Part shown: one piece after another, positions 31,600 to 63,197 of the stretch | How positions within the stretch are numbered: position 1 is the first letter of the stretch | How the letters are laid out: the number at the start of each line of letters is the position of its first letter | Source of the DNA: Chthoniobacterales bacterium | GTDB lineage: Bacteria > Verrucomicrobiota > Verrucomicrobiia > Chthoniobacterales > UBA10450 | Direction: 5' to 3' | NCBI GenBank assembly: GCA_045809745.1 | Contig: JBJMXE010000091.1 | Coordinates: 3,016-67,015, forward strand | Length of the DNA stretch: 64,000 nucleotides | Made by a program: the position numbers and the translations under genes | The notes under the pieces: model-generated | The model's input: only the letters and a program-made list of their open reading frames with translations | What the model was told of the DNA's origin: nothing | Databases searched by the model: none

Positions 31600-31624
31600 G
31601 GCGTCTGACACAGACGCCCTACAA
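31600..31624 (-). repeat. GTAG-headed REP-like hairpin (class GGCGTCTG)
   Basis: The reverse complement reads TTGTAGGGCGTCTGTGTCAGACGCC, identical over 25 nt to 63173..63197. It has an 8-bp stem and a TGT loop. Confidence 0.8.
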
Positions 31625-31832
31625 TTCGTGAATAGCCGATTCGTTAGGCTCGGGGCGCCCTATTTTTGTCCCGGCTGTCGGCCCGGTGGAACGCGATCTC
31701 CGCGCGCGTTGTTGAATCGATCGCAGCGAAGCTGCGATAAGATTGAGCGGCATAGCGGCTGATCGGTAACAACGGGCTGGGGAGATCGCGTTCCGCCGTC
31801 GAGACCGATGCTTGCCTGCCCCGATCGAACCG

Positions 31833-32480
31833 CTAGCGTACACGCGAAAACGCGAGCCGCGCGCCGAACCCGATCATCGCCAATCCCGAGACAGCTTCCA
31901 GACTGGCTTTCACCCGCGGCTTTGTCAGAAAAGCTCGCATTCTCCCGGCGCATATCGCGATTCCTCCAAGCCAGATTACGCCCATCAAATAATGACAGAA
32001 TGTCATGAGGAGCGATTTCATCAACACCGGGTCGTTAGGGCTGATGAACTGAGGCAGGACCGCGAAATAGAAGACCGCGATCTTCGGATTCAAGGCGTTG
32101 GTAAGAAGACCTTGCCGGTAGCAGCGCCAGCGGCTGCCAGCGTTATTGCGCCGATCGATGTTTGCCTGGACAGCGAATCTCTTTGTCCATAGTCGGCCCG
32201 CTTCCAGCAAGCTCTGAATTCCAAGGTAAAGGAGGTAGAACGCTCCCGCGATTTTGACGAGGTTGAAAGCGACTGGCAAACGAACGAACAGTGCGGCAAC
32301 GCCGAGTGTTGCCAGGAACGGCTGAAAAACAAATCCGGAACAGATGCCGGCCATGGTGCACAAACCGTCCCGGGTTCCGCCTGAGAGCGTATTACGGAGG
32401 GTCAGCACGGTGTCAGCCCCGGGGGTGATGGTTAGCACTGCGGCCAACGCTAAAAAAGCCCAGAACAGGGAATCAAACAT
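31833..32480 (-). CDS. LysE/RhtB family amino-acid exporter
   Basis: The N-terminal ITPGADTVLTLRNTLSGG motif and about 6 TM helices. Confidence 0.85.
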   Translation of the reverse strand: MFDSLFWAFLALAAVLTITPGADTVLTLRNTLSGGTRDGLCTMAGICSGFVFQPFLATLGVAALFVRLPVAFNLVKIAGAFYLLYLGIQSLLEAGRLWTKRFAVQANIDRRNNAGSRWRCYRQGLLTNALNPKIAVFYFAVLPQFISPNDPVLMKSLLMTFCHYLMGVIWLGGIAICAGRMRAFLTKPRVKASLEAVSGLAMIGFGARLAFSRVR

Positions 32481-32531
32481 AGCGCAACAGATTACGATAT
32501 TTGTTGGCGCCGATGAATACGAAAGACTCGC

Positions 32532-32556
32532 TGTAGCCGGGGACGGTGACCCCGGC
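32532..32556 (+). repeat. GTAG-headed REP-like hairpin (class GCCGGGG)
   Basis: TGTAGCCGGGGACGGTGACCCCGGC with a GCCGGGG/CCCCGGC stem. It lies in a divergent intergenic region. Confidence 0.6.
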
Positions 32557-32679
32557 TGACATTCAGGTAATCATCTCCAAGACGGGGGTGAGCGACCCGG
32601 CTTCAACCAGATGGGTCCGGCTACAGGTCGCCATTCGGCTGGACTTTTTCCCCTGAAGCAGGTAAAAACCTTGACTCGG

Positions 32680-34191
32680 ATGCGGTGGAAAAATCTATAT
32701 TTTTGCGGGAACGCTTTGTTAGCGACCGCAGTTCTATTGGCGGCGGCGATGGTATCAAGCGCGGTCGCAGGGACAATTACTGTGACCAGCACTGCTGACA
32801 ACGGCGCGGGCAGTTTGCGGGCGGCGCTCGGTTCCGCGGGCGGTAACGACACCATTGATTTCGCTCTGAACTTGCCGGCAGTGATTACGCTGACCACCGG
32901 CGAACTACTCGTCACCAACAACGTGACGATCTCCGGACCTGGAGCCGCCAATCTGACGATCAGCGGAGGTAACGCGGGGCGGGTGTTTCATGCCGGAACA
33001 TCGAATACGGTCACCATTTCGAGCCTAACGATTGCCGATGGGCTGGTGAGCGCAGGCGGCGTCGGCGCGGGGATTTATCTCGAGAACGCGAATTTGACGC
33101 TGCTGAACTGCGTCATCCAGAACAACCACGCTACTGGTGGAAGCACCGCGCACGGTGCCGGAATTTACGCCATCCAATCTCAGCTCACTCTGACTGGATG
33201 CACCATCGGCAGCAATGTTGCTTCAGGAAACGGCGGAGGTGTTTACAACATTGGTTCCACCGTAACGCTGAATCGCAGCACAATCAGCGGAAACAGTGGA
33301 CTGAATGGCGGCGGGTTGTTCAGTGCCGCTGGCACGACCAACCTGATTGGCTGCCTCGTTAGCGCGAACGTTGCGACTCATGGCGGCGGCGTAGCGAACG
33401 TAGGCGCGCTCGGCGCAGCTGCGCTGACAATGAATAACTGTACCTTTAGCAGCAACACCGTGTCTGGCGCGAGCGCTACCGGAAGTCAGGTTTATAATTC
33501 GCGTCAACTATCAGCCACTTCGGCAGCGATCATCAACTCGACAATTTTGAGCAATATGGTTGCGGGCAATTATGCCGGCGGAGCGGTCTACAATGAAAAT
33601 GGAGCAACTGTTACCGCAGGGAGCAGCATCATTCAGACAAGCGTGCAGGAACATAGCTTCGTTAACGCCGGCGCGGGAAGCATCACTTCGATGGGTTACA
33701 ACCTGAGTTTCGATACCGGTAACGGTTTTCTGACTGGTCCGGCCGATCAGATCAGTACCGATCCATTGCTCGATGTCGGCACTGGACCTCGTGACAACGG
33801 CGGCCCTACGTTCACAATCGCTCTCCAGGCGAACAGTCCGGCGATTGATAAGGGCAAAGTGTTCGGCAGCGGCACCGATCAGCGGGGCGAACCGCGACCA
33901 TTCAACGACCCGGGTGTGCCCAACGCTGTAAACGGGGACGGGAGTGACATCGGGGCATACGAAGCGGATCTGCGCCTAACAAGTCTGGCCAGAGTGAGCA
34001 ACAATTTGCAGCTTAACTTTACCACTATTGTCGGAAAGAGTTACCAGCTACAGAGCCGGCCAAGCCTGGTGATGGGCGGTTGGAACGGTGTTGGTGGCGC
34101 GTTGGCCGGCAATGGCGGGATTGAAGGTTCAACGGCCACGAACGCGTTCAGTTCGGCAGTGCAGTTCTATCGCATCTTGCAGACGCCGTAG
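32680..34191 (+). CDS. secreted right-handed beta-helix protein (choice-of-anchor Q / PMP-repeat-like) with FYRI-type C-terminal domain
   Basis: ORF 32611..34191. ATG 32680 precedes a signal peptide. The N-terminal motif is TVTSTADNGAGSLRAALGSAGGNDTIDF. Repeated GGG(V/L)(Y/F) turns follow, and the protein ends VQFYRILQTP. Confidence 0.7.
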   Translation: MRWKNLYFCGNALLATAVLLAAAMVSSAVAGTITVTSTADNGAGSLRAALGSAGGNDTIDFALNLPAVITLTTGELLVTNNVTISGPGAANLTISGGNAGRVFHAGTSNTVTISSLTIADGLVSAGGVGAGIYLENANLTLLNCVIQNNHATGGSTAHGAGIYAIQSQLTLTGCTIGSNVASGNGGGVYNIGSTVTLNRSTISGNSGLNGGGLFSAAGTTNLIGCLVSANVATHGGGVANVGALGAAALTMNNCTFSSNTVSGASATGSQVYNSRQLSATSAAIINSTILSNMVAGNYAGGAVYNENGATVTAGSSIIQTSVQEHSFVNAGAGSITSMGYNLSFDTGNGFLTGPADQISTDPLLDVGTGPRDNGGPTFTIALQANSPAIDKGKVFGSGTDQRGEPRPFNDPGVPNAVNGDGSDIGAYEADLRLTSLARVSNNLQLNFTTIVGKSYQLQSRPSLVMGGWNGVGGALAGNGGIEGSTATNAFSSAVQFYRILQTP

Positions 34192-34422
34192 ACAGCAGGC
34201 TTCCCGCCGCGCCTGCGCGTGGAGATCCAGGGAGCGGCGGTCGCCGAAGCGCCGACCCGGTTCGGCGACTGGGAAGTCCCGCTCAGTGATCAAAGAATTC
34301 CGGTATTCTGACCGCGCCATCCAGAGTCTTACGGCCGAATCCGACCAAAGCGGACCGGGTAAACCGTTCGGCTGCAGCAGATTTCGCTAGCGCTGGCATT
34401 GTTTTGGCGGAGAATTGTTCTC

Positions 34423-34953
34423 ATGACGAAGGCTTGGGCTGTTGGGTTGGCCGTGTTGTCGGGTCTCTGCTCTGGGATGAACGCGCAGCAGAATGACGGG
34501 ATGAGCGCGCTCGATGGTGCAAACCGACCATCATCGGCGCCCGTCGCCGCGCTCGGCTTGTCAGATGGGCATCATTTTCCTTTCCGGAGCGCTTTTGCCT
34601 GGATGGAACCGGCTAACGATTTTCTTCCGAACTGGAAGCCGGATGGATGGGACTCCGCGCCGGATTACAAGGTGGCGACCAAATCGCGTCAGCCCCGACA
34701 GCGAACTAACGACTACAAAAATGTGTCCGAGGGCAAAGACTCGACCGGGGGATCGGTCGAACTGCGGAAGAGTTTATTTGATAACGTCCATGGCGAGGTG
34801 GGCTTCCTTTACGGCGCTTCGAGCGGAGGGCGAGTCAGTCATCAGCTCGAGTCCAGCTACATTTTTGGCAGCGTTGGCGATGAGCATGTGCAGATTAGCG
34901 CCGGTGCGTTCTACGAACACTCGAACACCGATTTTTCCCGGCGCGGCCGCTAG
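34423..34953 (+). CDS. secreted hypothetical protein
   Basis: ORF 34399..34953. ATG 34423 gives the signal peptide MTKAWAVGLAVLSGLCSGMNA. No motif recognised. Confidence 0.45.
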   Translation: MTKAWAVGLAVLSGLCSGMNAQQNDGMSALDGANRPSSAPVAALGLSDGHHFPFRSAFAWMEPANDFLPNWKPDGWDSAPDYKVATKSRQPRQRTNDYKNVSEGKDSTGGSVELRKSLFDNVHGEVGFLYGASSGGRVSHQLESSYIFGSVGDEHVQISAGAFYEHSNTDFSRRGR

Positions 34954-34963
34954 ATGGTTCTCC

Positions 34964-34989
34964 TTGTAGCGGCGGTCTCTGACCGTCGC
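34964..34989 (+). repeat. GTAG-headed REP-like hairpin (class GCGGCGGTC)
   Basis: TTGTAGCGGCGGTCTCTGACCGTCGC has a 9-bp stem with one G-T wobble. It starts 11 nt after the stop at 34953. Confidence 0.75.
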
Positions 34990-35007
34990 ACTAATTCTGC
35001 TGAAGGG

Positions 35008-35039
35008 TTCCTCGCTCGCTCGCAGATCGAGAGATGTCT
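35008..35039 (+). repeat. MITE/REP-like element, degenerate right-arm fragment D
   Basis: TTCCTCGCTCGCTCGCAGATCGAGAGATGTCT matches the TTCCTCGC..GCTCGCCAGA..GAGAGATGTCT core of copies A-C. It lacks the palindrome. Confidence 0.55.
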
Positions 35040-35070
35040 CGACGACGCTCAACACGACATCCAAAATTAC

Positions 35071-37437
35071 TCAATCGGGCAGTACTCGGAGGCGATATTG
35101 CCGCTGACTTACTCCTGAAGCGGAGGCATCGCTAACAACCAGACTCGTGGAATCCGCAGCGCGGATGTTACCGAACTGCGTCCACGTGCCGGACATCAGA
35201 TTATCCACGTATTCGGCGACGTAACGTTTGAGCGGCACTGATCGAAAGGTCAGCGTGACCGTCGTTCCGTCCGCGGTGATCCTTGCAGGCGCCAGATTGT
35301 CGGCTGCGTCTACCGGGCTCGTTCCGGCAATAAACTCGGCGTAGTTGCTCATTCCGTCGCCATCGCTATCGATATTCGGCGATGCTGCGGTTGTGGATCC
35401 GAAGTATTGCTGTTCCCAGTCGTTAGGCAGGCCGTCGTTGTCGCTGTCGCTGCGAATCACAAACCCGGCGACGTCACTGGTAGCCTTTTCTGGCCTCACA
35501 TCCGAGCCGTTCAACCTGGAGACACAGTTGGTGAAGGTGACGGCGTTGGCATGCCGCATGTAGTAGCCATAGGCTGGAAGATTTCCCCACAAATTCGCCT
35601 CCGGGTACTGATTGCTGTCCCATTCCGGCGGATTTGGCGGCACCGTGTTCAGGCCGCCCTTGAATGTAATATTGCAGTTTGTGAAAAACAGATTCTTGAT
35701 CGGATAGATCGTGCCGTTGTAGAGCTGACCGCTGATGTTCGATCCGTAGATGTCACTGGTGCTGTTGTCTACACTGCAAAGAATGTCGGTGAAGTGGACG
35801 TTGTCGAGGGTGCCTAACTTATCCATGTCTCCATCGGGATGGCCGGGTTGCTGACCCAGGAACACGAAAAAAGCCGAACCGCAATTGGAGAATTCCAAAC
35901 GTGAGAAGTTGATGTTGCTGACATCCGCGCCATTGCGCGACATTACCACCATGGCCGCAAACCGGGCATTCTTAGCGTAGCAATCCTGGAGCAACGCATT
36001 TGTGAAGCCGCCATAGCTGGCGGTGCCGAACTTGTAGCTGTTCGCGCCCGTGTGCGCGGTGAAACAATCTTTGATCACCAGATCATCCACTCCTCGGCGG
36101 ATTCCCGTTTTCGGGCAGAATGAATCGTCGCCGGTATACACGGTGCAATCCTGAATGACGGCGTGATGACAGTCTACCGGATCGATGCCATCACGAGTTG
36201 GAAAAAGGTCCACGTTCAGCAAAACGTCTTTGATGAGCACGTTATCGGTTTCCATCGGCACAATCGTCCACATCGCCGAAAGTCTAACGTAGATGTTTTG
36301 GATGGTGACGTGATCGGAAAGCACTGTCCAAATGGTTATCGGTCGCTCCGCTTCCTTTATATCGGTGTTGTACCACGATTTCCCATCGGTCGAACCATCG
36401 AGTCCACTTCCGTCGATTGTTCCGCCGCCGTCAATTGTGAGGTTGGTGCAGCCTTCGGCGTAAAGGTGAGCGCGACGGCAGTTCAAAAGCTGGTTGTTGG
36501 TAGTGGCTGGAGATTGTTTGGGAAAGTCCGCGCCGTTAAGTGACGCCTTCAAGTTCGCCGTGCTTTCGATGAAAAGAGTCATGTTGCTCTTCAGATTCAA
36601 CATGCCGGTGAGATAAGTTCGGGGACCGCTCAGGTAAACACTTCCTCCGGTGCCGGCGCAGGCGTCAATGGCGGACTGAATAGCAGCGGTGTCGTTAGTC
36701 GTGCCGTCACCCACCGCATTGTATGGAGGAGCATGCACATCCAGCACCGGACCCGGTGGAGCGCCGATGAAGGCGCCCAACTCCCAAATCTTCACGTTGT
36801 CCACGTACAAGATGCCGGTGTTCGTGCCATCCATGTAAAACTTCAGCTGGCCGAGGCTGCCGCCGGTGGGAGCATTGCGGACAGCGGCGTTATTCAGTTT
36901 CCGCACACCGTCGATGAACAGGTCATACGTGTTGGCGGTCGTATTGATCACCACCCGGATCATGTACCAGTCGTTGGGCACGAAAGGTTGAATGGTTGTT
37001 TTCGTACCGCCGATGTAGGAGACGATATTTCCGTTTTCCAAACCCACCGAAACAACAGCGATCCCGTTCCCATCATAGATATACGGGCACACTTTGAAGC
37101 CGTTTGTGGCGCGGGTGAGCACCTTCGCTTCGAACGCAACTCTTCCGCTCTGACTTGCAAACGTCCGGGAAAGCGTTGATTCGCCTGAAGTAGTAGTCTT
37201 CTCGATCCGGACGCTCTTGTCTGCGGCGAAAGGGTATTCTCTGATCTGCACCGACCCGCTGGTGGCAACGCTAATCCAGTTGTTAGCTGGACCGGCATTG
37301 GTCGTCATTCCGTTGAATTTCTCGTTAACGACATAGATGCCGGTCGCATCCGCAGTTCCCGCGCACAGAAGCAGGCCGATAAGACCGATCGCTCTGTATG
37401 AGAACACGGCTAGCCGGGTGAAAGGCTGATACGGCAT
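35071..37437 (-). CDS. secreted LamG-like lectin domain + GH28-type beta-helix glycosidase + TSP3-like repeats + YRL-type C-terminal domain
   Basis: ORF 35071..37716. ATG 37437 precedes a signal peptide. The N-terminal concanavalin/LamG-like region ends in LYVDNVKIWE. The pectate-lyase-3/GH28-like region has YNAVGDGTTNDTAAIQSAIDAC and TGDDSF. These are followed by SDSDNDGLPNDWE, DSDGDGMSNYAEF and the ending RQYRLRVLPD. Confidence 0.75.
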   Translation of the reverse strand: MPYQPFTRLAVFSYRAIGLIGLLLCAGTADATGIYVVNEKFNGMTTNAGPANNWISVATSGSVQIREYPFAADKSVRIEKTTTSGESTLSRTFASQSGRVAFEAKVLTRATNGFKVCPYIYDGNGIAVVSVGLENGNIVSYIGGTKTTIQPFVPNDWYMIRVVINTTANTYDLFIDGVRKLNNAAVRNAPTGGSLGQLKFYMDGTNTGILYVDNVKIWELGAFIGAPPGPVLDVHAPPYNAVGDGTTNDTAAIQSAIDACAGTGGSVYLSGPRTYLTGMLNLKSNMTLFIESTANLKASLNGADFPKQSPATTNNQLLNCRRAHLYAEGCTNLTIDGGGTIDGSGLDGSTDGKSWYNTDIKEAERPITIWTVLSDHVTIQNIYVRLSAMWTIVPMETDNVLIKDVLLNVDLFPTRDGIDPVDCHHAVIQDCTVYTGDDSFCPKTGIRRGVDDLVIKDCFTAHTGANSYKFGTASYGGFTNALLQDCYAKNARFAAMVVMSRNGADVSNINFSRLEFSNCGSAFFVFLGQQPGHPDGDMDKLGTLDNVHFTDILCSVDNSTSDIYGSNISGQLYNGTIYPIKNLFFTNCNITFKGGLNTVPPNPPEWDSNQYPEANLWGNLPAYGYYMRHANAVTFTNCVSRLNGSDVRPEKATSDVAGFVIRSDSDNDGLPNDWEQQYFGSTTAASPNIDSDGDGMSNYAEFIAGTSPVDAADNLAPARITADGTTVTLTFRSVPLKRYVAEYVDNLMSGTWTQFGNIRAADSTSLVVSDASASGVSQRQYRLRVLPD

Positions 37438-37827
37438 CAATCTCTTAGTGCGATACTGAGTTGAAAATCTGCGGCTCACCGCAACAACGCAGCGAGATTC
37501 GGGGTCAGGACGAGTGTCAGTATTCTGCGCAGCATGAACGCGCCAGATCAAGGCAAAACCGGCCATTTTAGCCGGTACCAGCCTGCAAACGCGGCGCAGG
37601 CGCCTTGCACTTCGGGCTCTAGAGCGGCTCGCTGCCATTATGCAACGAGCGCGCTCAGAGTGTCCGGACTTCCTAGCGTGGGCTTCCAGCCTATGTTTTG
37701 CCCCGACCATCGGCAAAGTGCCGATGCCACAACTTTAGGATGAACAGAACGCGAACGTTCGCGCGCTGACCATCAGCAGGCTTTGACCGTTCCAGGAAAA
37801 TCCTGACGGTCCTCCCGGCCGATGCGG

Positions 37828-38295
37828 TTAGGCCTTATCGTAAACGCCCGTCGTCTTGTATTTCTTGCCTTTCGGCGTTGTCCCCGAGGTAGTGACGGTC
37901 CGCGTCTTTCCGTCAGCAGAAACGACCACCTTTCCCGTACCGACAACTTTGCCGCCTTTTTTCACTGTCATGTTCAACGTGCGATCGTTCACTTTGGTAT
38001 ACGCGCGAGTGTCCGTATTTGGGTCGCCGCTAACGGCGTAGTCCTTGCCATCAAATTTTCCTTTCCACTCGTTGTGAGTTGCCTTTCCGTCCGGACCGGT
38101 GCCGTCGACCGTCACCCTGACTTTCCCCATGACCGTATCCTCATACGTAACGGTGCTGTTCTTTCCCATCCCGGGGGCCAATTTGGATTTCGACTCGTTC
38201 AGCTTCCATGTTCCCTCGAGTGGATGATCGGTCGCGTACAAGGCCCCGACGGCGAGAAATATCCCCAAGCTAGCTACAATGATTTTGGTTCGCAT
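37828..38295 (-). CDS. small secreted lipocalin-like protein
   Basis: ORF 37828..38418. ATG 38295 gives the signal peptide MRTKIIVASLGIFLAVGALYA, followed by GTWKLNESKSK and a beta-rich sequence. Confidence 0.55.
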   Translation of the reverse strand: MRTKIIVASLGIFLAVGALYATDHPLEGTWKLNESKSKLAPGMGKNSTVTYEDTVMGKVRVTVDGTGPDGKATHNEWKGKFDGKDYAVSGDPNTDTRAYTKVNDRTLNMTVKKGGKVVGTGKVVVSADGKTRTVTTSGTTPKGKKYKTTGVYDKA

Positions 38296-38445
38296 GGCTG
38301 CATGGAGCAGAGATTTCGCGGAGAGGTCAACGTTTTTCTGGTTCGTAAATTGCGCGGATCGAGGAAGTTCCGACGGGTTCTGCAAAAGAAGTGAGCCGAA
38401 TTTGATTGTCGGGTGCACCGGGCGCGGATATGCCGTACAGCATCG

Positions 38446-40563: not shown

Positions 40564-40593
40564 TTGTAGAGGTGCTCGCTGCGGCGAGGACCT
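40564..40593 (+). repeat. GTAG-headed REP-like hairpin followed by a T5 run
   Basis: TTGTAGAGGTGCTCGCTGCGGCGAGGACCT has a 10-bp stem with one mismatch, followed by GTTTTTC. It faces the next hairpin in a convergent pair. Confidence 0.6.
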
Positions 40594-40603: not shown

Positions 40604-40632
40604 AGAGGCGGTTGACACAACCGCCTCTACCA
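40604..40632 (-). repeat. GTAG-headed REP-like hairpin (class AGAGGCGGTTG)
   Basis: The reverse complement reads TGGTAGAGGCGGTTGTGTCAACCGCCTCT. It has an 11-bp perfect stem and a TGT loop. Confidence 0.75.
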
Positions 40633-47230: not shown

Positions 47231-47746
47231 ATGAATATTTCTATCATCACTAAATCCATCGTCTGCGTCACCGCGGTGTCGCTACTCGCCGCAGCGCCGG
47301 CTTTCTCCAAGACCGTGCAGCTGCCTAACGACGATTTCGCGATCGCCTCGATCGATTTCCCCGCCAGCTGGGAACCGGAAGAGATCAACAATGGAGTGGC
47401 CGCCGAAAGTCCGGACAAAGCGGTGTTTCTTTCAGCGGTGGCCGTCGGCAGCGACAAAGGTATGAATGCCGAGCTCGATGACACTTTCGACTTTCTCAAA
47501 GAACACAACGTGGAGTTGGACAAGAAGAGCAAGTCCGAGGGCAAGTTTAAGATTGGCGATCTGGAAGCCGAAGAGCTGACATTCCAGGGTAAAGATGAAG
47601 ACGGTCCGGCCGCGGTCAGCATCGCGTTCGTCACCATCAAAGATAAAGTGGTCGTTCTGACCTACTGGGTTTCCACCGACAAGGAAAAGGAACATTCGGA
47701 CGAAGTAGGCAAGATTCTCCGAAGCCTGAAGCCAGCGTCCAAGTAA
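47231..47746 (+). CDS. secreted hypothetical protein
   Basis: ORF 47144..47746. ATG 47231 gives the signal peptide MNISIITKSIVCVTAVSLLAAAPAFS. Confidence 0.55.
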   Translation: MNISIITKSIVCVTAVSLLAAAPAFSKTVQLPNDDFAIASIDFPASWEPEEINNGVAAESPDKAVFLSAVAVGSDKGMNAELDDTFDFLKEHNVELDKKSKSEGKFKIGDLEAEELTFQGKDEDGPAAVSIAFVTIKDKVVVLTYWVSTDKEKEHSDEVGKILRSLKPASK

Positions 47747-47775
47747 GTCGTTCGTTAACTTTCTAAGCTAATTTA

Positions 47776-47812
47776 GCGCGGATCGGAGAACCCGGTCCGC
47801 GCTTTTCGATTT
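47776..47812 (+). terminator. rho-independent terminator
   Basis: GCGCGGATCGG-AGAAC-CCGGTCCGCGC forms an 11-bp stem with one G-T wobble, followed by TTTTCGATTT. It lies 30 nt after the stop at 47746. Confidence 0.75.
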
Positions 47813-47896
47813 GTGGGTCATCGACATGCTCCAACGGAGGGCAGAGCTCCTGCGGCGCCGCACCTTCCTTGTTTCGGCATGGACGGTCCCGAGTCA

Positions 47897-47920
47897 TCGT
47901 AGCGGCGGTCTATGACCGCC
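47897..47920 (+). repeat. GTAG-headed REP-like hairpin (class GCGGCGGTC)
   Basis: TCGTAGCGGCGGTCTATGACCGCC has a 7-bp stem and a TAT loop. Confidence 0.65.
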
Positions 47921-48028
47921 AAATCTTGCCGCTCTGCTCGAGGCTGCGGCGTGACAGGGCGCCTCTCCGCTGATGTTTGCGTCGTAATCCACTTTCTTAT
48001 GCGGGCGGTTCGGTTCATCGTAATCTTT

Positions 48029-49072: not shown

Positions 49073-49098
49073 TTGTAGCGGCGGTCTCCGACCGTCAC
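49073..49098 (+). repeat. GTAG-headed REP-like hairpin (class GCGGCGGTC)
   Basis: TTGTAGCGGCGGTCTCCGACCGTCAC has a stem with one wobble and one mismatch. A left-arm fragment of the 95-bp element (TGTCATTTCGGCC) follows at 49123..49135. Confidence 0.7.
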
Positions 49099-52761: not shown

Positions 52762-53035
52762 TGGTAGCGGCGGTTCACCGAACCGCCATTCTGCGCCTGC
52801 TTGCGACGCGCCCTCGCCCTGGGACCCGGGGATCCCTGGCGATTGGGTCAATCGCCTCTACCACTGACGGCGTTCGGACCTTTGGTAGCGGCGGTTCACC
52901 GAACCGCCATTCTGTGTCTGCTTGCGACGCGCCCTCGCCATGGGACCCGAAGAAGCCTGGCGATTGGGTCAATCGGCCTCTACCATCGATGGCGTTCGAA
53001 CCTTTGGTAGCGGCGGTTTACCAAACCGCCATCTG
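52762..53035 (+). repeat. tandem array (2.3 x ~121 bp) of REPIN-like units
   Basis: Units start at 52762, 52883 and 53005. Each full unit has a forward hairpin TGGTAGCGGCGGTTCACCGAACCGCC. Each also has a reverse-oriented hairpin (GGCGATTGGGTCAATCGCCTCTACCA at 52838..52863 and 52959..52985). Units 1 and 2 are ~90 percent identical. Confidence 0.85.
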
Positions 53036-53987: not shown

Positions 53988-54014
53988 GGTGTAGCCGGGG
54001 TCGCTGACCCCGGC
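53988..54014 (+). repeat. GTAG-headed REP-like hairpin (class GCCGGGGTC) between convergent genes
   Basis: TGGTGTAGCCGGGGTCGCTGACCCCGGC has a perfect 9-bp stem. It starts 3 nt after the SDR stop. Confidence 0.75.
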
Positions 54015-54457: not shown

Positions 54458-54560
54458 TCTAACCTGTAGTCGTCGAAATCAGGGAGTCTCCGGGAGGTCG
54501 CTTTTCTTCTTCATAACCCGCGCGACAGGAACCACGGTACAAGCAGCAGCGAAAAAGCCA

Positions 54561-54764
54561 TCACCGCTGTCCCGAGAAATATCCCCAAATCATACCGACG
54601 GCAGCTGCGTAGCGCATCACGGACCCCGCCGCAGCATCCCGAGTAAATAGCGAAGCCACAAATTCGGGCGAGATCAGCGCGACATTACAGGCAAAGATCC
54701 CGCCGATCGCCGACGAGGCGAGAGCGCCGCCAACGATCCAGCTGAAATATTTTAGGAACGTCAT
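54561..54764 (-). CDS. small hypothetical membrane protein
   Basis: Two hydrophobic helices. Its ATG lies 1 nt after the upstream methyltransferase stop (TGA G ATG), which suggests translational coupling. Confidence 0.45.
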   Translation of the reverse strand: MTFLKYFSWIVGGALASSAIGGIFACNVALISPEFVASLFTRDAAAGSVMRYAAAVGMIWGYFSGQR

Positions 54765-54765
54765 C

Positions 54766-55644: not shown

Positions 55645-55677
55645 ACAGGACGTCGGATTGCGGCGAGTGCCAGCATT

Positions 55678-57546
55678 TTAGCTGCGACGATCAGCGATAG
55701 CAGAATTGGGCTTCTCCGACCCCGCCGTGTTCGCTGCCTGCTGTTTGATCCATCGCTCCACGCGCTCCTGCAGTAGGTCCAGTGGCATCGCTCCGCCATT
55801 CAGGATCTCGTCGTGAAACGCTTTGATGTCGAACTTTGCTCCGAGCTGCTGTTTCGCTTCGTCCCGCAGCTTGCGGATCGTGAGCTGGCCTATCTTGTAA
55901 GCGAGAGCCTGTCCCGGCCAGGCAATGTAACGGTCTGCCTCAGTCTGGGCCATCGCATCGTTCACGTCATTGGCGTGCATATAATCGATCACCTTTTCGC
56001 GGCTCCAATTCTTATCGTGGATGCCGGTATCCACCACCAGCCTAACGGCGCGGAAGAGTTCGGAGTTCAGCCGTCCGTAATCAGAGACCGGCTCCTGGTA
56101 GAAACCAATCTCTTTACCCAAATCTTCGGCATAAAGTGCCCAGCCTTCCGCGTAGGCGGAATAAAAGCCGTGCAACCGAAATTTTGGAATGTCGGGCAGC
56201 GTCTGGGCGATGCTGATCTGCATGTGATGGCCCGGCACACCTTCATGATAAGCGACGGCTTCGTCATCAACCAGAGTACGCTTCGTCGGGTCAGCCACCG
56301 CCACCACCACGCGCCCCGCTCTTTTGCCGTCGGGTGTGCCGGCGACGTAATGCGTTGCCGCGGCTTTGTTGAAGTCAGGGATCGGTTCAACTGTCACCGG
56401 CGCCTTCGGCAGAAGTCCGAACAATTGCGGCAGCTTCGGCTCCATTTGGTGAATGTATTTCTCGAAATCTTCAACGATCTGCCGTTCGCTTTTGGGCTTC
56501 CACTTCGGATCGCCGTTGATGGCTGCGCGGAACGTGGCGAGATCCTTCTGTCCATTCGCCTGCGCTAGTTTCGTCATCTCGCCGGTGATGCGCTCGACCT
56601 CCTTTAATCCAATCTCGTGGACCTCGGCGGGGGTTACGTTGATCGTGGTCATCGTTTTCACCGCTTCGGCGTAGCGACGCTTGCCGTCCGCCAGACTCTC
56701 GATCGAGAGATCCTTACGTCCTTTCGCGTCGTACTCGGTCCGCAGAAACTCGGCGAACTTTCGGTAGGCCGGGAAAACCTCATCGTTAACCGTCTTTGTA
56801 ATCTCGTCGGTTAGGCGTTTTTTATTTTCCTCTGAAAAGTCCGCCGGGAATTTTTTGAGAGGCAGAAGGAACGGGTTCGCAGCGATAATTCCGTCGCATT
56901 GTCCGGGCAGCTTATCGAGCACCAGTTCCGGCGGCATCAGTTTGTCTTTTTCGCCCTGCCGCAGCACCTCCGTTGTCTGATCGAGCGCCCGGGGGATTTG
57001 ATGCAGCCGTGAAATGTAATCCTGGTAGTGCGCCACCGAATCGAACGGCACGCTGAGCGGCATGTCGGCGAGTCCGGTGTGCACACCCCGCTGCTGGTTT
57101 ATCGGCATCTCGTAGTTTTTGAGATCGTAGTTTACGTCCTCACGTTCCAGTTGACGCTGCATGAGCTGATGACTCAGCAGGTCCTTCTCGCTCATTCCAT
57201 CCGTCGGGATGGCTTTGAGGCGTTTTAAAAACTCATCGGCTTCGGCGTGCTGGCGCTCGATTTCCTTGAGTGAGTACTGCGCCAGCAGCCCGTTGTAGCG
57301 GTAGTCACCAAACGATGTTGCTCGCTCGGGTGCATTCTTCAGTCCCGTCTCATAAAATTCATCGAACAATGCATTCTGTTTGGCCACGCGCTCTTCCAGA
57401 GGCGCCGGTTGGGTGAAGCCGGAAAACGGGACGGCTATAATGAATGCCCAGACGAGGGAGCTGGTTCGGTAGCCGCGACATGGACGGGAAGCAGTTGGCG
57501 CTGCCGGTCTGAGCGTCGGCCTGCGCCGATAATCGATTTTTCGCAT
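55678..57546 (-). CDS. DUF885-family protein (putative metallopeptidase-like)
   Basis: HEGVPGHHMQ motif, the length, and a signal-anchor N-terminus are all typical of DUF885. Confidence 0.8.
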   Translation of the reverse strand: MRKIDYRRRPTLRPAAPTASRPCRGYRTSSLVWAFIIAVPFSGFTQPAPLEERVAKQNALFDEFYETGLKNAPERATSFGDYRYNGLLAQYSLKEIERQHAEADEFLKRLKAIPTDGMSEKDLLSHQLMQRQLEREDVNYDLKNYEMPINQQRGVHTGLADMPLSVPFDSVAHYQDYISRLHQIPRALDQTTEVLRQGEKDKLMPPELVLDKLPGQCDGIIAANPFLLPLKKFPADFSEENKKRLTDEITKTVNDEVFPAYRKFAEFLRTEYDAKGRKDLSIESLADGKRRYAEAVKTMTTINVTPAEVHEIGLKEVERITGEMTKLAQANGQKDLATFRAAINGDPKWKPKSERQIVEDFEKYIHQMEPKLPQLFGLLPKAPVTVEPIPDFNKAAATHYVAGTPDGKRAGRVVVAVADPTKRTLVDDEAVAYHEGVPGHHMQISIAQTLPDIPKFRLHGFYSAYAEGWALYAEDLGKEIGFYQEPVSDYGRLNSELFRAVRLVVDTGIHDKNWSREKVIDYMHANDVNDAMAQTEADRYIAWPGQALAYKIGQLTIRKLRDEAKQQLGAKFDIKAFHDEILNGGAMPLDLLQERVERWIKQQAANTAGSEKPNSAIADRRS

Positions 57547-57625
57547 ATATCCATGCTAGCAGAGTTCCTCAGACGCGCATGACGTCAGCGGTAGGAGCTC
57601 CGTCGGTTGATCAGCAGGGCAGTTA

Positions 57626-60040
57626 TCACTCTTCCCGCATCAGTTCGGTCGGATCGACGGCAAGGGCTCGCAATGCCGGGATAGCGGAGGCGGCAATGCC
57701 GAGCAGCGCCATCGTTAGTACCGCCCCGATCACCACCGTAGGCTCCCGTGAATTCGCCTGATACACTATTTGTCCGAGTATCCGACCGGCGAAGAAGCCT
57801 AACAACACTCCCACCAACGATCCTGTGCCGAGAAGCATGATCGGTCTTCCGACAGCTGCCCTAATCACGTGCTTTGCGCGGGCGCCAAGTGCAACACGGA
57901 TACCGAGCTCCTTCATTCTTCGACTTACGTTGTAAGCCGCCATGCCGAAGATGCCGGTTACCGCCAGCATCGCGGCCAGCCCTCCCATGATACCCATTGC
58001 TGTTGTCGATGCGCGTGCGGGGAATAGCGCGTTCACCCCGCTGAGCACATCCTCCCACCTCTGCACCGTGACGATCGCATTCGGCTCCAGCGAAGTCAGG
58101 GTGCGTTCAAGCGTTGGCGCGAATTCGTTCTCCGGGCGTGGCGATCGGACGACAAACATGATTGAGCTCCGCTCGTTCTGCGCCAACGGCAGAAACACCG
58201 CCGGCTGGGCTGGCTCCAGCATGTTGTGATACTTGCCGTCCTCCACCACGCCGATCACTTCCGTTAATCGCTCGGAGACGATGAACCGCTGTCCGATCGC
58301 CGCCGCTTCGCCCCACATCTTCCGCGCGAAGGTCTGATTCACCACCGCGACGTGTGGTTTCTCGCTGTTATCATGCCAGGAGACATCGCGGCCGTTCAGG
58401 AGCCGCGTGCCGGCAGCCTCGAAGTATCCGGGCGATATGGTGAAGACATACGGCGAAAGGACAGCATTGTTCGGCGTCAACTCTGTCGTCCCAGGCGCGA
58501 ATATCGGAATGCCACGCAATCCTCCGTTGAAGGGCCCCCGGCTGACCGTGCCCACCGCCGTCACGCCAGAAATGTTTCGCAGCGCGTCGATCATTGCTCG
58601 CTTTCTGTCAAGCGGCACGTCGCCCGCCACCTCAGTTAGGTCCAGGTCGGCCAGCAAGGCGCCTTGCGGTTGGAAACCTAGCGGAGCGTGCAGCATGCGC
58701 ACCATCCCGCGAAGGGCGACGAACGAGGCCATGACCAGCAGCGTGCAAAGTGCAATCTGAGCGCCTAACAACAGGTCCCGCAGGGCGAGCCGGCGCATGG
58801 GCGTGGCACCGACCGATCCGCTCTTCATCGCCTGCAACGGGCTGGTCTGCCAGACGTGCCGCGCCGGGATCAGGCCGAACAGCAGCCCGCTGGTGATAGT
58901 TAAGATCAGGGCCGCCAGGTAGACACTGGCATCCGCACTCACTGCGGTACGGCCATACGGGGACTGCCATTGGTTCAGCAACCCTAACAGCACGCGTGCC
59001 GCCAATAGCCCCGCGGCTCCGCCGATCAGCGACACCACCATTGCCTCCGTCATGAGCTGTCGCACAACCCGCCAACGGCTCGCCCCGATGGCAACACGCA
59101 ACGCGAGCTCCCTGCTCCGATCCGCCGCGCGCGCGGCAAAAAGGCTCGCCAGATTAGCGCATGCCGCAGCCAGCACCAGCAGAGCGAATCCGGTGATGCT
59201 CCAAAGAAATCCGCGAATGACGTCACCGTTGTCGGCGAAGAGGCCGGGCCGGACCAGTCGCAGCGGCATTCCCGTATCTGTCTTCGGATGCTCCAGTGCT
59301 AACTGCGCGGCGATTGTGCTGAGATTTTCCGCAGCCTGTTCGGGCGTGACGCTGGGCTTCAGCCGTCCAAGAACCGTTAGGGCGTTCGATGTCCGGCTCT
59401 GCAGAGACTCCGGCCCGAAGTAATTCACGATCGGAATCCAAAAGTCGGGCCACTCGAATTTGTCGGTGCCATGGAACCTCGCCGGCGCGACGCCGATTAT
59501 GGTGAAGGAATCTTTGCCGAGGGTGACGGCGGTGCCGACGACGCCCGGATCTGCGTTGAAGACGCTTTGCCACAGCTGATGACTCAAGACCAAGTACGGC
59601 GCCGAACCCGTGCCATGCTCGTCCGCCTCGTCGATGAACCGTCCGACCTCCGCTGGCACACCCAACAGTTCGAAATAATTGCCGGTTACCGCGTGACCGT
59701 AGACACTTTTCACGGTGCTGCCCCAGTGCAGTCTCGCCTGACAATATCCGTAAAAGCCGGCCATGCGGCTGAAGGTGGTGTTACGCTGCCGAATGTCTTG
59801 AAACGCCGGATAGGACGTCGTCAGCAGCTTGAAACTTGTCCACGGCTGGAGCCGAAGTTGGTAAAGGTTGTCTGGATCCTTTACGTCGACGGGACGCAGC
59901 AGCACCGCATTCAGCACTCCGAACACGACGATGTTCGCGCCAATCGCCAGCATCAAAGTGAGCACCGCTACCACAGTGAATGCCGGAGATTTCCACAAGA
60001 CGCGCAGCGCATAACGAATGTCGAGCAGCAGGTCGTTCAT
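57626..60040 (-). CDS. duplicated FtsX/MacB-type ABC permease (ADOP-like orphan permease)
   Basis: The N-terminus is DIRYALRVLWKSPAFTVVAVLTLMLAIGAN. Two permease halves each have a periplasmic domain plus a 4-TM FtsX module. There is no adjacent ATPase gene. Confidence 0.85.
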   Translation of the reverse strand: MNDLLLDIRYALRVLWKSPAFTVVAVLTLMLAIGANIVVFGVLNAVLLRPVDVKDPDNLYQLRLQPWTSFKLLTTSYPAFQDIRQRNTTFSRMAGFYGYCQARLHWGSTVKSVYGHAVTGNYFELLGVPAEVGRFIDEADEHGTGSAPYLVLSHQLWQSVFNADPGVVGTAVTLGKDSFTIIGVAPARFHGTDKFEWPDFWIPIVNYFGPESLQSRTSNALTVLGRLKPSVTPEQAAENLSTIAAQLALEHPKTDTGMPLRLVRPGLFADNGDVIRGFLWSITGFALLVLAAACANLASLFAARAADRSRELALRVAIGASRWRVVRQLMTEAMVVSLIGGAAGLLAARVLLGLLNQWQSPYGRTAVSADASVYLAALILTITSGLLFGLIPARHVWQTSPLQAMKSGSVGATPMRRLALRDLLLGAQIALCTLLVMASFVALRGMVRMLHAPLGFQPQGALLADLDLTEVAGDVPLDRKRAMIDALRNISGVTAVGTVSRGPFNGGLRGIPIFAPGTTELTPNNAVLSPYVFTISPGYFEAAGTRLLNGRDVSWHDNSEKPHVAVVNQTFARKMWGEAAAIGQRFIVSERLTEVIGVVEDGKYHNMLEPAQPAVFLPLAQNERSSIMFVVRSPRPENEFAPTLERTLTSLEPNAIVTVQRWEDVLSGVNALFPARASTTAMGIMGGLAAMLAVTGIFGMAAYNVSRRMKELGIRVALGARAKHVIRAAVGRPIMLLGTGSLVGVLLGFFAGRILGQIVYQANSREPTVVIGAVLTMALLGIAASAIPALRALAVDPTELMREE

Positions 60041-60126
60041 GAATGAGAATCAGCGATGGCTAGTCGTAAACTGCGAATTGACGACCCTGATAGGCTCATT
60101 TGGAAATCTCAGCCGAACAAACATTT

Positions 60127-60624
60127 ATGTCGCTCGAACAATTATCTTACCTCGCGCAAATCGTTGGCTCGGCCGGAATCATTATATCGTTCGTGTTCGT
60201 CGGTCTACAGATCAGACAGAATACCGCTGCGCTTCAGCGTAACGAACATAATTCGACGATGCGCGAATGGACGGTGATCCGGATGGGAATTGCCGGAAAC
60301 CGCGACCTTGCCGAGTTGATGACTGCCGGACTTCGGGGCGAGAGCGTCCTGGATCCGGCCGATCAACTGCGGCTGGAAATGTTTCTGAATGAACAGACTT
60401 GGGCGGCTTTTCACATCTGGGACAGAACGCAGCGCGGAGTTTTCCCGAAAGGCACGTTCGAGTTCTCGACTGGAAAGTACCTCGCGGATATTTTCCGAAC
60501 ACCGCGCGGCGAAACCTGGTGGCGAAGCGCAAAGACCACCGCTTTTCCTCCGCCGTTCGTCGCAGATGTCGATGCCGTGGTCGCGGGTGTGGCCTCGCCA
60601 ATTCCGTCAATGAACGCGGACTAG
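60127..60624 (+). CDS. hypothetical membrane-anchored protein
   Basis: ORF 60100..60624. ATG 60127 precedes one TM helix (LAQIVGSAGIIISFVFVGL). Confidence 0.45.
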   Translation: MSLEQLSYLAQIVGSAGIIISFVFVGLQIRQNTAALQRNEHNSTMREWTVIRMGIAGNRDLAELMTAGLRGESVLDPADQLRLEMFLNEQTWAAFHIWDRTQRGVFPKGTFEFSTGKYLADIFRTPRGETWWRSAKTTAFPPPFVADVDAVVAGVASPIPSMNAD

Positions 60625-60699
60625 AACTTCGACAACTCTAATGGGCCGCATCGCGCATCGACGAACGTCGGGCTTCTCCCTACGTCTCATTGGTGATCG

Positions 60700-61077
60700 T
60701 TATTTGTCGTCCTGCACTTCAACAACCATCAACTCGATAGGGTGATCGCCTGCATTTACGTCGGTATGCATGGTGTTCGGAGGATTAGCGGGTAACCAGT
60801 AAGCTTTTCCGGTCTCCCACACGTGGGTTTCGGATGCGCCGGATTGATCCACGATCTTCATCGTGCCGCCCTGGAGAGCAACGATCACGCGGCCATGGTC
60901 ATGACGATGCAATGACAACGGCGCATTCGGAACAATGGTGGATTTCCAAACTTTCACATGCGCATTCTCCAATTGAGGAAGGCGCTGCGTGGCAGAGGGC
61001 GTAACGGAGGACCGCACCCCTGAGGCGGCGACGACAAGAGCAATACCAACAGAGCTAAGAGTGATCGTGCGATTCAT
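60700..61077 (-). CDS. secreted cupin-domain protein
   Basis: Signal peptide, then cupin motifs LHRHDHGRVIVALQGG and HTDVNAGDHP. Confidence 0.65.
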   Translation of the reverse strand: MNRTITLSSVGIALVVAASGVRSSVTPSATQRLPQLENAHVKVWKSTIVPNAPLSLHRHDHGRVIVALQGGTMKIVDQSGASETHVWETGKAYWLPANPPNTMHTDVNAGDHPIELMVVEVQDDK

Positions 61078-61134
61078 GATGTTTCCTTCGATTGTTCTCT
61101 TACGGGGATTTCCGGCAAAATTTACCTCTGCCCT

Positions 61135-61617
61135 CTACGCCAGCTTGGCGAAACCCGCACCCAGTGACGTGATTTGGGCCAGTGCTGCGGAACCAGCAGT
61201 GGCGATTTCGAAATCCTGAAACTCGAATCCGGGAGCGACCGTGCATCCGACCAGGCTAAATGCGCCGAGCGGCCTGGCCGCCTGCCAACATCCGGCCGGG
61301 ATCACGCAAACGGAACGACCATTCGAAGTACTAGTTCCGAGCACCTCGTGGCGTGGCTGGCCGTGACCGTCGATCCAGTAAAGTTCAAGTGGATCACCTT
61401 CATAAAAGTGCCAGACCTCATCGGAGGCAACCCGGTGCCAGCGGCTGTGCTGGCCTTTTCCCAGCATGAAGTAGATGGTCGTTAGCGCCGAACGCGCTGA
61501 TCTCTCGTCCAATGGCTGTACTTCCCGCGAAGATCGGAAAATCTCACGAAAGTATCCTCCTTCGGGATGGGGTTGCAGATCGAGATCGCTGATCAGTTTG
61601 CTGGCGCGGTCATGCAT
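61135..61617 (-). CDS. DUF985 cupin protein
   Basis: The N-terminus LQPHPEGGYFREIFRS and WHRVASDEVWHFYEGDPL are typical of DUF985. Confidence 0.75.
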   Translation of the reverse strand: MHDRASKLISDLDLQPHPEGGYFREIFRSSREVQPLDERSARSALTTIYFMLGKGQHSRWHRVASDEVWHFYEGDPLELYWIDGHGQPRHEVLGTSTSNGRSVCVIPAGCWQAARPLGAFSLVGCTVAPGFEFQDFEIATAGSAALAQITSLGAGFAKLA

Positions 61618-61755
61618 CTTCTTGTTGCACCATTAAGAAAAAACACCGGTTCACGGCTAACGTTGACAGGTTACACCTCCGCGATCGAATTCTAAACCGA
61701 GCAATCGGCCGAAATCATCAAATCGCTGAACCATCCAGATGGTGTAGGCTCATGT

Positions 61756-62580
61756 GTGAAGTTATCCATTGCCGACAAGCGGAAAGGATTTCGGAAACTA
61801 CATGAATCGGGTTGCTTTGTGTTGCCAAACCCCTGGGATATCGGCAGTGCGCGTTATCTGGCTTCGTTAGGCTTCAAAGCGATCGCCAGCACATCTGCGG
61901 GATTCGCGTTCTCCCGCGGTTTGCCTGATAACGCGGTCGGTCGCGACGCGGTGCTCGCTCATCTACGGGAACTCGTCGCGTCAACAGATCTGCCGGTAAA
62001 TGCTGATTTCGAGAACGGATTTGCCGACGATCCAGAGGAGCTTGCTGAAAACGTGCGGCTGGCGATTGAGACCGGCATCGCTGGACTTTCGATTGAAGAT
62101 TCCACCGGAAAATCGGCCGATCCGTTGTACACAATTGAGCATGGTACGAATCGAATTCGAACTGCCCGGCGAGCGATCGATAAGAGCGGATCGGATGTCG
62201 TTCTGGTAGGTCGCGCTGAATGTTACCTGGTGGGTACGGAGGATATATCCGAGACGACGCGCCGACTGAAAGCGTATGCCGAGGCCGGGGCCGATTGCCT
62301 TTACGCCCCTGGCATCGACAGCCTCGAACAAGTGGCCGCAATCGTGGACGCCGTGGAACCGAAACCGGTAAACGTCCTGATCAGCGGTCCCGGCAGCCTG
62401 ACGATTGCAGATGTTGCGGGCGTTGGAGTGAGGCGCGTCAGTGTTGGTGGCGCGCTGGCCCGCGCCGCATGGGGAGGATTTATTCGCGCCGCGAAAGAGC
62501 TGGCGGAGCAGGGGACGTTTGGCGGGTTTGCCGGGGCGGCTGGCCACGGGGAGTTAACCAGTTTTTTTCGGAAGCAGTGA
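61756..62580 (+). CDS. isocitrate lyase / PEP mutase superfamily enzyme (2-methylisocitrate lyase-like)
   Basis: GTG start. Motifs LPNPWDIGSARYLASLGFKAIASTSAG and GLSIEDS are present. Confidence 0.8.
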   Translation: MKLSIADKRKGFRKLHESGCFVLPNPWDIGSARYLASLGFKAIASTSAGFAFSRGLPDNAVGRDAVLAHLRELVASTDLPVNADFENGFADDPEELAENVRLAIETGIAGLSIEDSTGKSADPLYTIEHGTNRIRTARRAIDKSGSDVVLVGRAECYLVGTEDISETTRRLKAYAEAGADCLYAPGIDSLEQVAAIVDAVEPKPVNVLISGPGSLTIADVAGVGVRRVSVGGALARAAWGGFIRAAKELAEQGTFGGFAGAAGHGELTSFFRKQ

Positions 62581-62668
62581 TGCGGAGACAACGATGGCGA
62601 GCACGAGAACGATTACGACTACGAGCACTAACGGGAGGCGATCAGGATCAGGATAGGAGGAGAGGAAT

Positions 62669-63137
62669 ATGGCAGCGCGGAACAGTGATGTTGAATCTAT
62701 CGATGCGATTATTACCGCCGCTTATGAAGCGGTGTCTGGTAAAGCCGGCGAAAAGCGCGATTGGGATCGGTCACGCGCCTTATTCGCGCCCGGGGCGCGG
62801 CTGATCCCCACCAGCAAACAGGCGGGTGTCAACGTACCTGATAGCGAACCGCCACAGCCGCTCGACGTGGAAGGTTATATTGCGCGAGTCAGCGGATTTT
62901 TTTGAGCAGGTTGGCTTTTACGAGCAGGAAGTGGCGCGACGGACGGAGCAATTCGGCCGGATTGCTCACGTGTTCAGCACATATGATTCACGCCATGATC
63001 CTTCCGATTCGGAGCCGTTCATGCGAGGAATTAACAGCATTCAGCTGTATCACGACGGCGAGAGGTGGTGGATCATTTCGATCTACTGGCAGCAGGAGAA
63101 CCGGGAGACGCCGATTCCGGAGAAGTATCTTCGGTAG
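62669..63137 (+). pseudogene. NTF2-fold protein gene split by a 1-nt frameshift in a T7 run
   Basis: ORF 62669..62905 ends ...[15 protein letters not shown] 62826..63137 (frame +1) continues ..[12 protein letters not shown].... Both read through the same T7 run at 62897..62903. Removing one T gives one continuous ~155-aa protein. Confidence 0.65.
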
Positions 63138-63172
63138 ATTCACGCAGTTAGGCCATCTCGGCTGCGCGGCCA

Positions 63173-63197
63173 TTGTAGGGCGTCTGTGTCAGACGCC
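63173..63197 (+). repeat. GTAG-headed REP-like hairpin (class GGCGTCTG)
   Basis: TTGTAGGGCGTCTGTGTCAGACGCC is identical to the reverse complement of 31600..31624. Confidence 0.8.

Follow-up and report, generated by a model that had tools for sequence, protein, structure and literature searches.

Repetitive extragenic palindromic (REP) elements and the REP-associated tyrosine transposases (RAYTs) that accompany them are best studied in Gammaproteobacteria, usually with one to three systems per genome. Here we describe a 64,000-nucleotide stretch from an uncultured, Chthoniobacterales-like soil bacterium (contig C91, positions 3016-67015; hereafter the window), over which GC-rich hairpins headed by GTAG recur, and we set it against the rest of the assembly (G000: 3.50 Mb in 155 contigs, 56.8% GC, 93% complete) and against related genomes. 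We conclude with high confidence that these modules are GTAG-tagged REP elements, present as singles, as inverted doublets (REP doublets forming hairpins, REPINs) and as one bacterial interspersed mosaic element (BIME), and that they are spread by RAYTs encoded elsewhere in the genome.

A GT[AG]G head is common to RAYT-linked REPs across bacteria (PMC2817692, Table 1; PMC3733652). Several REP classes and RAYTs coexist in single Stenotrophomonas genomes, where classes are also present without their RAYT (PMC2817692), and one RAYT per genome is given as typical (PMC5581495). GTAG repeats have been reported in Verrucomicrobia and the Planctomycetes-Verrucomicrobia-Chlamydiae superphylum, in Opitutus terrae and Rhodopirellula baltica; O. 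terrae is called 'highly enriched', different REP families coexist in it, and species with several families have repeat-specific REPtrons, that is, RAYT genes bracketed by their own REPs (PMC3733652).

How does the present system compare? With the proteobacterial REPtrons (E. coli TnpA-REP/YafM, PDB 4ER8; Pseudomonas and Stenotrophomonas; PMC2817692, PMC3479197) it shares the GT[AG]G head on a GC-rich palindrome, tens to hundreds of mostly extragenic copies, RAYTs bracketed by their own REPs and the conserved HUH and tyrosine residues. Unlike them, it belongs to Verrucomicrobiota, its units, with a stem of 8-9 bp and a loop of 3-4 nt, are shorter and less complex, at least eight GTAG classes coexist together with GGA- and GGAGC-headed ones, the RAYT paralogues are more numerous (seven here, up to 19 in a congener), and several per cent of the copies lie in frame inside genes. 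It resembles Stenotrophomonas in its several classes and RAYTs per genome and its classes without a RAYT (PMC2817692), and the GTAG superfamily of Di Nocera et al. 2013 (PMC3733652) in its coexisting families with repeat-specific REPtrons, although genus and order differ from those described there and so, apparently, do the stems (GTAG-1 to GTAG-24 in that work). The main features are thus already in the literature; less ordinary are the number of classes and paralogues, a class C that has no RAYT, and the in-frame copies.

GTAG heads a genome-wide family of hairpins

All perfect GC-rich hairpins in the genome with a stem of at least 7 bp and a loop of 3-6 nt were listed (n = 1279), and the tetramer on both sides was tabulated. 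GTAG was the most frequent, standing at 194 of 2558 flanks; TAGC, offset from it by one base, stood at 95, and the next tetramer, GTGG, at 64. Both strands together have 13,965 GTAG, or 0.2% of all tetramers in the genome, so that about 5 such flanks are expected and the head is about 38-fold enriched beside GC-rich hairpins. A relaxed scan, which undercounts in that it missed the window copies at 47897, 49073 and 32532 with their terminal mismatches, found a hairpin after 22 of every 1000 GTAG occurrences; 15 control tetramers gave 5-9 per 1000.

Class sizes were taken from consensus searches allowing up to 3 mismatches. These gave 362 sites on most contigs, in at least eight stem classes with 8-109 copies each (A 109; B1 31 and B2 23; C1 30, C2 21 and C3 15; D1 26 and D2 19; E 30; F 33; G 26; H 8), and every class consensus begins with GTAG. 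Reversed patterns, searched as a control, matched nowhere. The earlier note on this window had proposed such a search by stem class and had made its reading depend on enrichment of the head, and both came out in its favour.

Could GTAG have been singled out by eye from GC-rich palindromes that a genome of 57% GC contains by chance? The relaxed scan does return its background rate for any tetramer, but the excess of GTAG flanks over expectation, the empty control searches and the fact that identical REP units occur in congeners only refute a chance origin, to which we assign practically no probability.

Singles, doublets and an array in the window

The earlier note had recognised 14 modules in the window, and all are present, at positions that fall 0-3 nt upstream of GTAG; its list was incomplete, with copies at 31495(+) and 31553(-) and a degenerate class F copy at 22662 overlooked. 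The modules share one architecture, as had been proposed: (T/G)GTAG, 0-1 nt, a GC-rich stem of 8-10 bp, a loop of 3-4 nt and the complementary arm. With a unit length of 23-29 nt they are short, GC-rich, imperfect palindromes. The G-T wobbles attributed to some copies are found at 34966 and 49075, and other imperfections are a terminal mismatch at 47899, a 1-nt bulge in the unit at 52959-52983(-) and, at 32533, a degenerate stem in which 6-8 bp pair with a mismatch or around a 7-nt loop. Folding as single-stranded DNA (ssDNA) gives -8 to -12 kcal/mol for representative units, where z-scores are -3.5 to -4.8, and -23 kcal/mol for the doublet at 40.6 kb; over all of these folds the z-scores extend to -7, and no shuffle out of 200 folds equally well.

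Across the genome, inverted doublets at fixed spacing (32-68 bp), the arrangement of REPINs, occur in classes C, D, F and B. Class C pairs head-out at 60-67 bp head to head and includes recurring C3/C2 doublets; the spacing is 32-36 bp in class D and 47 bp in class F. In the window, the 40566/40606 doublet and the array starting at 52762, whose doublets the earlier note had likened to REPINs/BIMEs, bear out that description, the array (52762-53035) alternating B1(+) and B2(-) at regular spacing. Inverted doublets and an alternating array are what is known of REPINs (Bertels and Rainey 2011, PMC3116915; PMC3337134) and BIMEs; what differs here is that copies of classes A, E and G mostly stand alone and that doublets often join two different stems, C1 with C2 or C3, B1 with B2, and D1 with D2.

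RAYT genes bracketed by matching hairpins

No RAYT-like gene lies in the window, as had been noted. Elsewhere the genome holds seven Y1-type RAYT genes (six intact and the C105 pseudogene) and two fragments, with class-specific hairpin flanks. All seven best fit the NCBIfam model NF047646, 'REP-associated tyrosine transposase', at 70-103 bits (three above its 80-bit cut-off, four just below), against 18-33 bits for the IS200 TnpA model. They also match PF01797 of the HUH/Y1 superfamily, their closest match in the PDB is 4ER8, E. coli TnpA-REP, and the two HUH histidines, H59 and H61 in E. coli numbering, are invariant, as is the catalytic tyrosine, Y115. RAYTs bracketed by REPs of one class stand on C73 (class B), C102 (class D) and C45 (class H), together with the relic on C96 (class G). 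The stems beside the C73 gene are one-step compensated variants of the units in the window array. The GTAG head with its palindrome, the high and dispersed copy number and the RAYT genes bracketed by matching hairpins vindicate the REP/RAYT reading that the earlier note had put forward (coordinates in Table 1).

Table 1. Positions of REP units, RAYT loci and in-frame copies in G000. Positions with no contig name are those of the window; neighbouring genes of the window and the hosts of in-frame copies were checked with Pfam.
Feature	Position	Strand	Remarks
Degenerate REP class F	22662		consensus search
REP class D1 (gcgGTAG GGCAAGCG cgt CGCTTGCC)	31495..31517	+	consensus search; class D also flanks RAYT C102:23368-23778
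Degenerate REP, D2 partner (GCAG head, GGCAGGCG...)	31531..31553	-	3 mismatches to D2 consensus; doublet with 31495
REP class E (ttGTAG GGCGTCTG tgt CAGACGCC)	31600..31622	-	class E flanks cognate RAYT in congener G001 (L122)
Degenerate REP class G (GTAG CCGGGGAC ggt GACCCCGG)	32533..32555	+	divergent gap, LysE(-) / ORF 32611(+)
REP class A (ttGTAG CGGCGGTC tct GACCGTCG, one G-T pair)	34966..34988	+	convergent gap
REP class C3 (ttGTAG AGGTGCTCGC tgcg GCGAGGACCT)	40566..40593	+	inverted doublet, left half
REP class C2 (gGTAG AGGCGGTTG tgt CAACCGCCT)	40606..40630	-	inverted doublet, right half
REP class A (cGTAG CGGCGGTC tat GACCGCCA)	47899..47921	+	between DcrB-like gene and DUF2277 gene
REP class A (ttGTAG CGGCGGTC tcc GACCGTCA)	49075..49097	+	divergent gap, SurE(-) / TetR(+)
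BIME-like array, five B units	52762..53035	alternating	period ~121 bp
B1	52764-52787	+	array unit
B2	52838-52861	-	array unit
B1	52885-52908	+	array unit
B2, 1-nt bulge	52959-52983	-	array unit
B1 variant, compensated GGCGGTTT/AAACCGCC	53007-53030	+	array unit
REP class G (gtGTAG CCGGGGTC gct GACCCCGG)	53991..54013	+	convergent gap; class G brackets decayed C96 RAYT
REP class E, reverse complement of 31600-31622	63175..63197	+	3' of PALP gene (-)
RAYT	C73:38160-38678		flanks GGTAGC-GGCGATCG and GGTAGC-GGCGGCTC (class B)
RAYT	C102:23368-23778		between D1/D2 doublets; contig ends within repeat
RAYT	C45:27454-27963		between GTAG-(A/C)CGTYKCGC hairpins (class H)
Decayed RAYT, stops and frameshifts	C96:4651-4898		inverted class G REPs at 4634(+) and 5022(-)
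RAYT locus	C106:20353-21008		non-GTAG flank hairpins, GGA-GGGACRMG
RAYT locus	C128:26031-26603 (C128:26089)		non-GTAG flank hairpins, GGA-GGGACRMG
RAYT	C128:38884		GGAGC-GCAGGCG hairpin
RAYT pseudogene, one TAA stop	C105:48500-49230		composite ~120-nt palindrome on both sides (GTGGATCGGCCGCTCCGCC ... AGCCCCGAAGGCTTTCGGGGCT ...)
In-frame REP in IleRS	C16:42057-42079
In-frame REP in PurL	C103:29568-29590
In-frame REP in UvrD-type helicase	C9:13406-13428
In-frame REP in ArgJ	C114:2012-2034
In-frame REP in Obg	C23:10933-10956
In-frame REP in DUF255 protein	C4:112493-112568		doublet

A different account would make the hairpins the ends of autonomous IS200/IS605 elements, or derivatives of such elements akin to miniature inverted-repeat (MITE) or palindrome-associated (PATE) transposable elements, and the RAYTs self-copying insertion sequence transposases. 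The enzymes do belong to one superfamily (PF01797), as many as 19 copies occur in one congener genome, and paralogues exceed the number that PMC5581495 treats as typical of RAYTs. However, the paralogues are only 25-55% identical to one another, each type is present in single copy with no set of identical insertion sequence copies, orthologues retain their class across genomes, the RAYT model outscores the IS200 model by far for all of them, the hairpins exceed the genes by about 50 to 1, and no tnpB partner was found in the RAYT flanks examined. An insertion sequence origin thus appears extremely improbable, and we retain the reading of REPs spread by RAYTs.

Some RAYT loci of this genome carry other repeats. 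The flanks at C106 and C128:26089 are direct repeats of (C/T)GGA-GGGACGAG and GGGACACG, followed by AAATTAAT, and CGGA (47) and TGGA (21) rank with the more frequent hairpin flank heads across the genome; the GGA-headed repeats are a separate REP family with a different head. The palindrome flanking the C105 pseudogene resembles a terminal inverted repeat, not a REP. Beside the C73 RAYT, a 258-bp tandem duplication (C73:37811-38172) repeats the B2/B1 doublet and the last ~30 RAYT codons, leaving a RAYT fragment at C73:37944-38033.

RAYTs and stem classes in related genomes

RAYTs occur in 23 of 26 related genomes, with 19, 11, 11 and 3 in the four congeners. The nearest homologues of the C73 enzyme, at 54-60% identity, belong to Candidatus Udaeobacter and other metagenome-assembled genomes (MAGs) of Chthoniobacterales and Verrucomicrobiota, and nearly all of the homologues, 20 or more across Verrucomicrobiota, have a GTAG hairpin in plus orientation upstream and one in minus orientation downstream, with lineage-specific stems. 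Three classes of the window recur beside RAYTs of congener G001 (7 contigs): A at L120, B at L121, there with an 8-unit array, and E at L122. Congener G003 has RAYTs with class F (L138) and class A (L146) flanks. In a maximum-likelihood tree of 54 RAYTs, clades match the flanking stem class (support 100/100 for B, 100/97 for J2, 100/99 for GGAGC-GCAYGCG and 99/95 for GGA-GGGACGAG), and among the GTAG classes the two deepest groups (85/77) split TGTAG- from GGTAG-headed flanks. That orthologous RAYT clades keep their stem class across genomes points to vertical inheritance.

The link between class G and a RAYT rests mainly on the relic at C96. In G003, the RAYT with the highest score of all (L136 on C62, 122 bits) appears intact and contains, within its coding sequence, a perfect GTAG-CCGCGGTC-gct-GACCGCGG hairpin at 735-758. 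We rejected this GTAG-CCGCGGTC hairpin as a flank since it sits inside the RAYT open reading frame (ORF); the real flank copy is at ~1106-1130 of the locus.

Several observations weigh against the reading of REPs spread by RAYTs. The geometry of the flanks varies: at C45 the outer upstream and downstream REPs have the same orientation, and at C102 the doublets stand as direct repeats on both sides of the gene. For classes A, E and F the assembly (93% complete, 155 contigs) contains no cognate RAYT, and its best matches to the A-, E- and F-type enzymes are paralogues at 42-53% identity; these enzymes have either been lost or gone unassembled. Class C, confined to the genus (exact-pattern copies: 27 in G000, 20 in G001, 42 in G003, 5 in G004 and 0 in G002), adjoins no RAYT in any of its copies here or in the four congeners, nor was a cognate found in 21 other relatives, and for classes without a cognate, such as C, the RAYT link holds by analogy only.

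Consensus-identical copies make up as high a share of class C as of the RAYT-bearing classes. Class C (CGGTGGTTG, AGGCGGTTG, AGGTGCTYG) may owe its maintenance to a non-cognate RAYT that acts in trans via the TGTAG head they share, and we entertain the possibility, though we tend to doubt it, that REP classes here are not strictly one-to-one with a resident RAYT.

Position and orientation argue against canonical terminators

Crude gene calls put 89.5% of the genome in coding sequence and 10.5% outside it, and yet 276 of the 362 copies lie outside the called ORFs, as REPs by name should. Convergent gaps hold 107 copies against 23 in divergent gaps, with 422 gaps of each kind (p = 4e-14). The window copies at 31.5, 34.97, 40.6, 53.99 and 63.2 kb stand in convergent gaps, and the 47.9-kb copy and the array at 52.76 kb in tandem gaps. 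The earlier note had placed one copy, at 32532, in a divergent promoter region; this one stands there, but it is not the only one, a second lying at 49075 between SurE and TetR.

Such a distribution might be expected of host signals, Rho-independent terminators or stabilisers of mRNA 3' ends, that evolved in place and are not mobile. The strong enrichment in convergent gaps and at gene 3' ends speaks for this, as do the stability of the hairpins and the T-runs that follow a few C2 and C3 copies, including a T5 between 40593 and 40606. An intrinsic terminator, however, pairs its hairpin with a run of U/T and is oriented with transcription. Here TTTT occurs within 9 nt downstream in only 15 of 234 copies, and in tandem gaps the head points along transcription in 70 cases and against it in 62, a random orientation; the terminator reading was rejected on these two counts. 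Moreover, identical 23-27-nt units recur with unrelated flanks, also bracketing RAYT genes, and copies are found in divergent promoters and inside coding sequences too. We consider an origin as host signals very unlikely. Position and orientation fit REPs and speak against canonical terminators, and REPs may have a secondary host role, such as protecting mRNA 3' ends or providing protein binding sites.

Turnover of sites and in-frame copies

REP units of 26-30 nt match congeners at 100% in many places, while coding DNA of the window is 68-76% identical. At that identity absence is read per orthologous gap and not per exact insertion point, and on this reading the window REPs are missing from those orthologous gaps between genes that were examined in G002 and G003. 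One such gap, in locus L155 (G002:C391:4600-5150), orthologous to window 47731-48027, has no class A REP and carries other short hairpin repeats (GGTGCCGTAGGCAC..., GCCGGTGGCGTGAGCCACCGGT, CCCCGGCAGGGGCAG).

Well within long ORFs lie some 14-24 copies, about 4-7% of the total, which occupy true genes in frame (Table 1). The octapeptide they encode, VAGVGDPG or PGSATPAT for class G and VAAVYDRR for class A, falls in linkers or loops. Among 14 intragenic copies that were translated, all 7 sense-strand copies are in phase 0; phase 2 would give a TAG stop. One loop of IleRS is occupied by a REPIN of class G in G000 and G002 and of class A in G001 and G003, and it has no insert in three other genera (G005, G007, G008). 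This pattern is direct evidence of REP gain or replacement, and the presence of different classes in the same loop suggests repeated targeting or replacement at permissive intragenic sites.

Rickettsia palindromic elements (RPEs) of about 100-150 bp, reportedly described by Ogata and colleagues in 2000, are likewise said to be inserted in frame in protein-coding genes, and no RAYT is known to be linked to them. The likeness lies in palindromic repeats tolerated in frame in the loops of housekeeping proteins (here IleRS, PurL, Obg, ArgJ and a UvrD-type helicase); unlike RPEs, the in-frame copies here are ordinary members of RAYT-linked REP classes.

Many stems on one head

Why do so many stem classes share one head? 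The earlier note had called this unusual, a view that we do not share: it is the expected result of multiple RAYT paralogues (seven here, 3-19 in congeners), because each has its own stem class. Multiple stem classes on one head are, moreover, already known in Stenotrophomonas, Pseudomonas and Opitutus. In the mechanism that we envisage, REPs would be non-autonomous, and a RAYT would recognise the hairpin in ssDNA, cut it and spread REP or REPIN units. One stem sequence, or one pair of stems, brackets each paralogue, which is presumably specific for it. Specificity would come from the stem, and the GTAG head, which is lengthened to TGTAG or GGTAG depending on the RAYT clade, would be the conserved element beside the site of cleavage. 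A recognition and cleavage-site element held in common in this way would allow many stem classes to carry one head. Binding of ssDNA, a cut beside the head, and copy-out/paste-in at replication forks are inferred from E. coli TnpA-REP and the IS200/IS605 paradigm; flanks, co-phylogeny and site turnover are documented at the level of sequence.

These results settle the annotation of ~360 short repeats and at least seven 'transposase' genes in this bacterium. REPs also account for part of the fragmentation of the assembly, as contigs end inside them (C102, for example). A genus with many RAYT paralogues and matching REP classes offers a natural panel for setting stem specificity against the common head, for following the survival of REP families after RAYT loss, and for asking how REPs come to lie in frame inside essential genes.

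RAYT domains inside genes of relatives

In relatives, RAYT domains themselves are found inside genes. A complete RAYT domain flanked by GGAGC- or GGTAGC-headed hairpins lies within alanyl-tRNA synthetase as part of a single open frame, at the same site in four genomes (L160 1550-4996 in G001, L161 in G003, L165 in G008 and L168 in G011); the insert splits PF01411 in two, with PF01797 between the halves. The alaS of G000 itself (C133:14965-17424) is an empty site with no RAYT insert. The GGAGC-headed subfamily, represented in G000 by C128:38884, lies in relatives in an uninterrupted frame inside AlaRS, RecG (L173, L170, L171, L163, L166) and MetH (L174). A second RAYT subtype is likewise in frame within ValRS (ValS; L169, L172) and CarB (L164, L167, L175), and a further in-frame RAYT locus lies at the C-terminus of a CDF transporter (L176). 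Host names were read from the sequences, with a Pfam check for the G001 AlaRS only. The frames run to 790-1350 aa with no stops, and the hairpin flanks are translated as, for example, GSARDSRA and ARESRALP. A life at permissive sites may link ordinary REPs to these in-frame RAYT cassettes in the alaS, recG, valS and carB genes of relatives.

More distant RAYT homologues, at 22-28% identity, come from Cyclobacterium (L037), Capnocytophaga (L041), Bergeyella (L042) and a Planctomycetaceae MAG (L046); in these, the GTAG-GGG(C/T)G... hairpins, in inverted pairs, are placed centrally within the tblastn match region and not at its ends.

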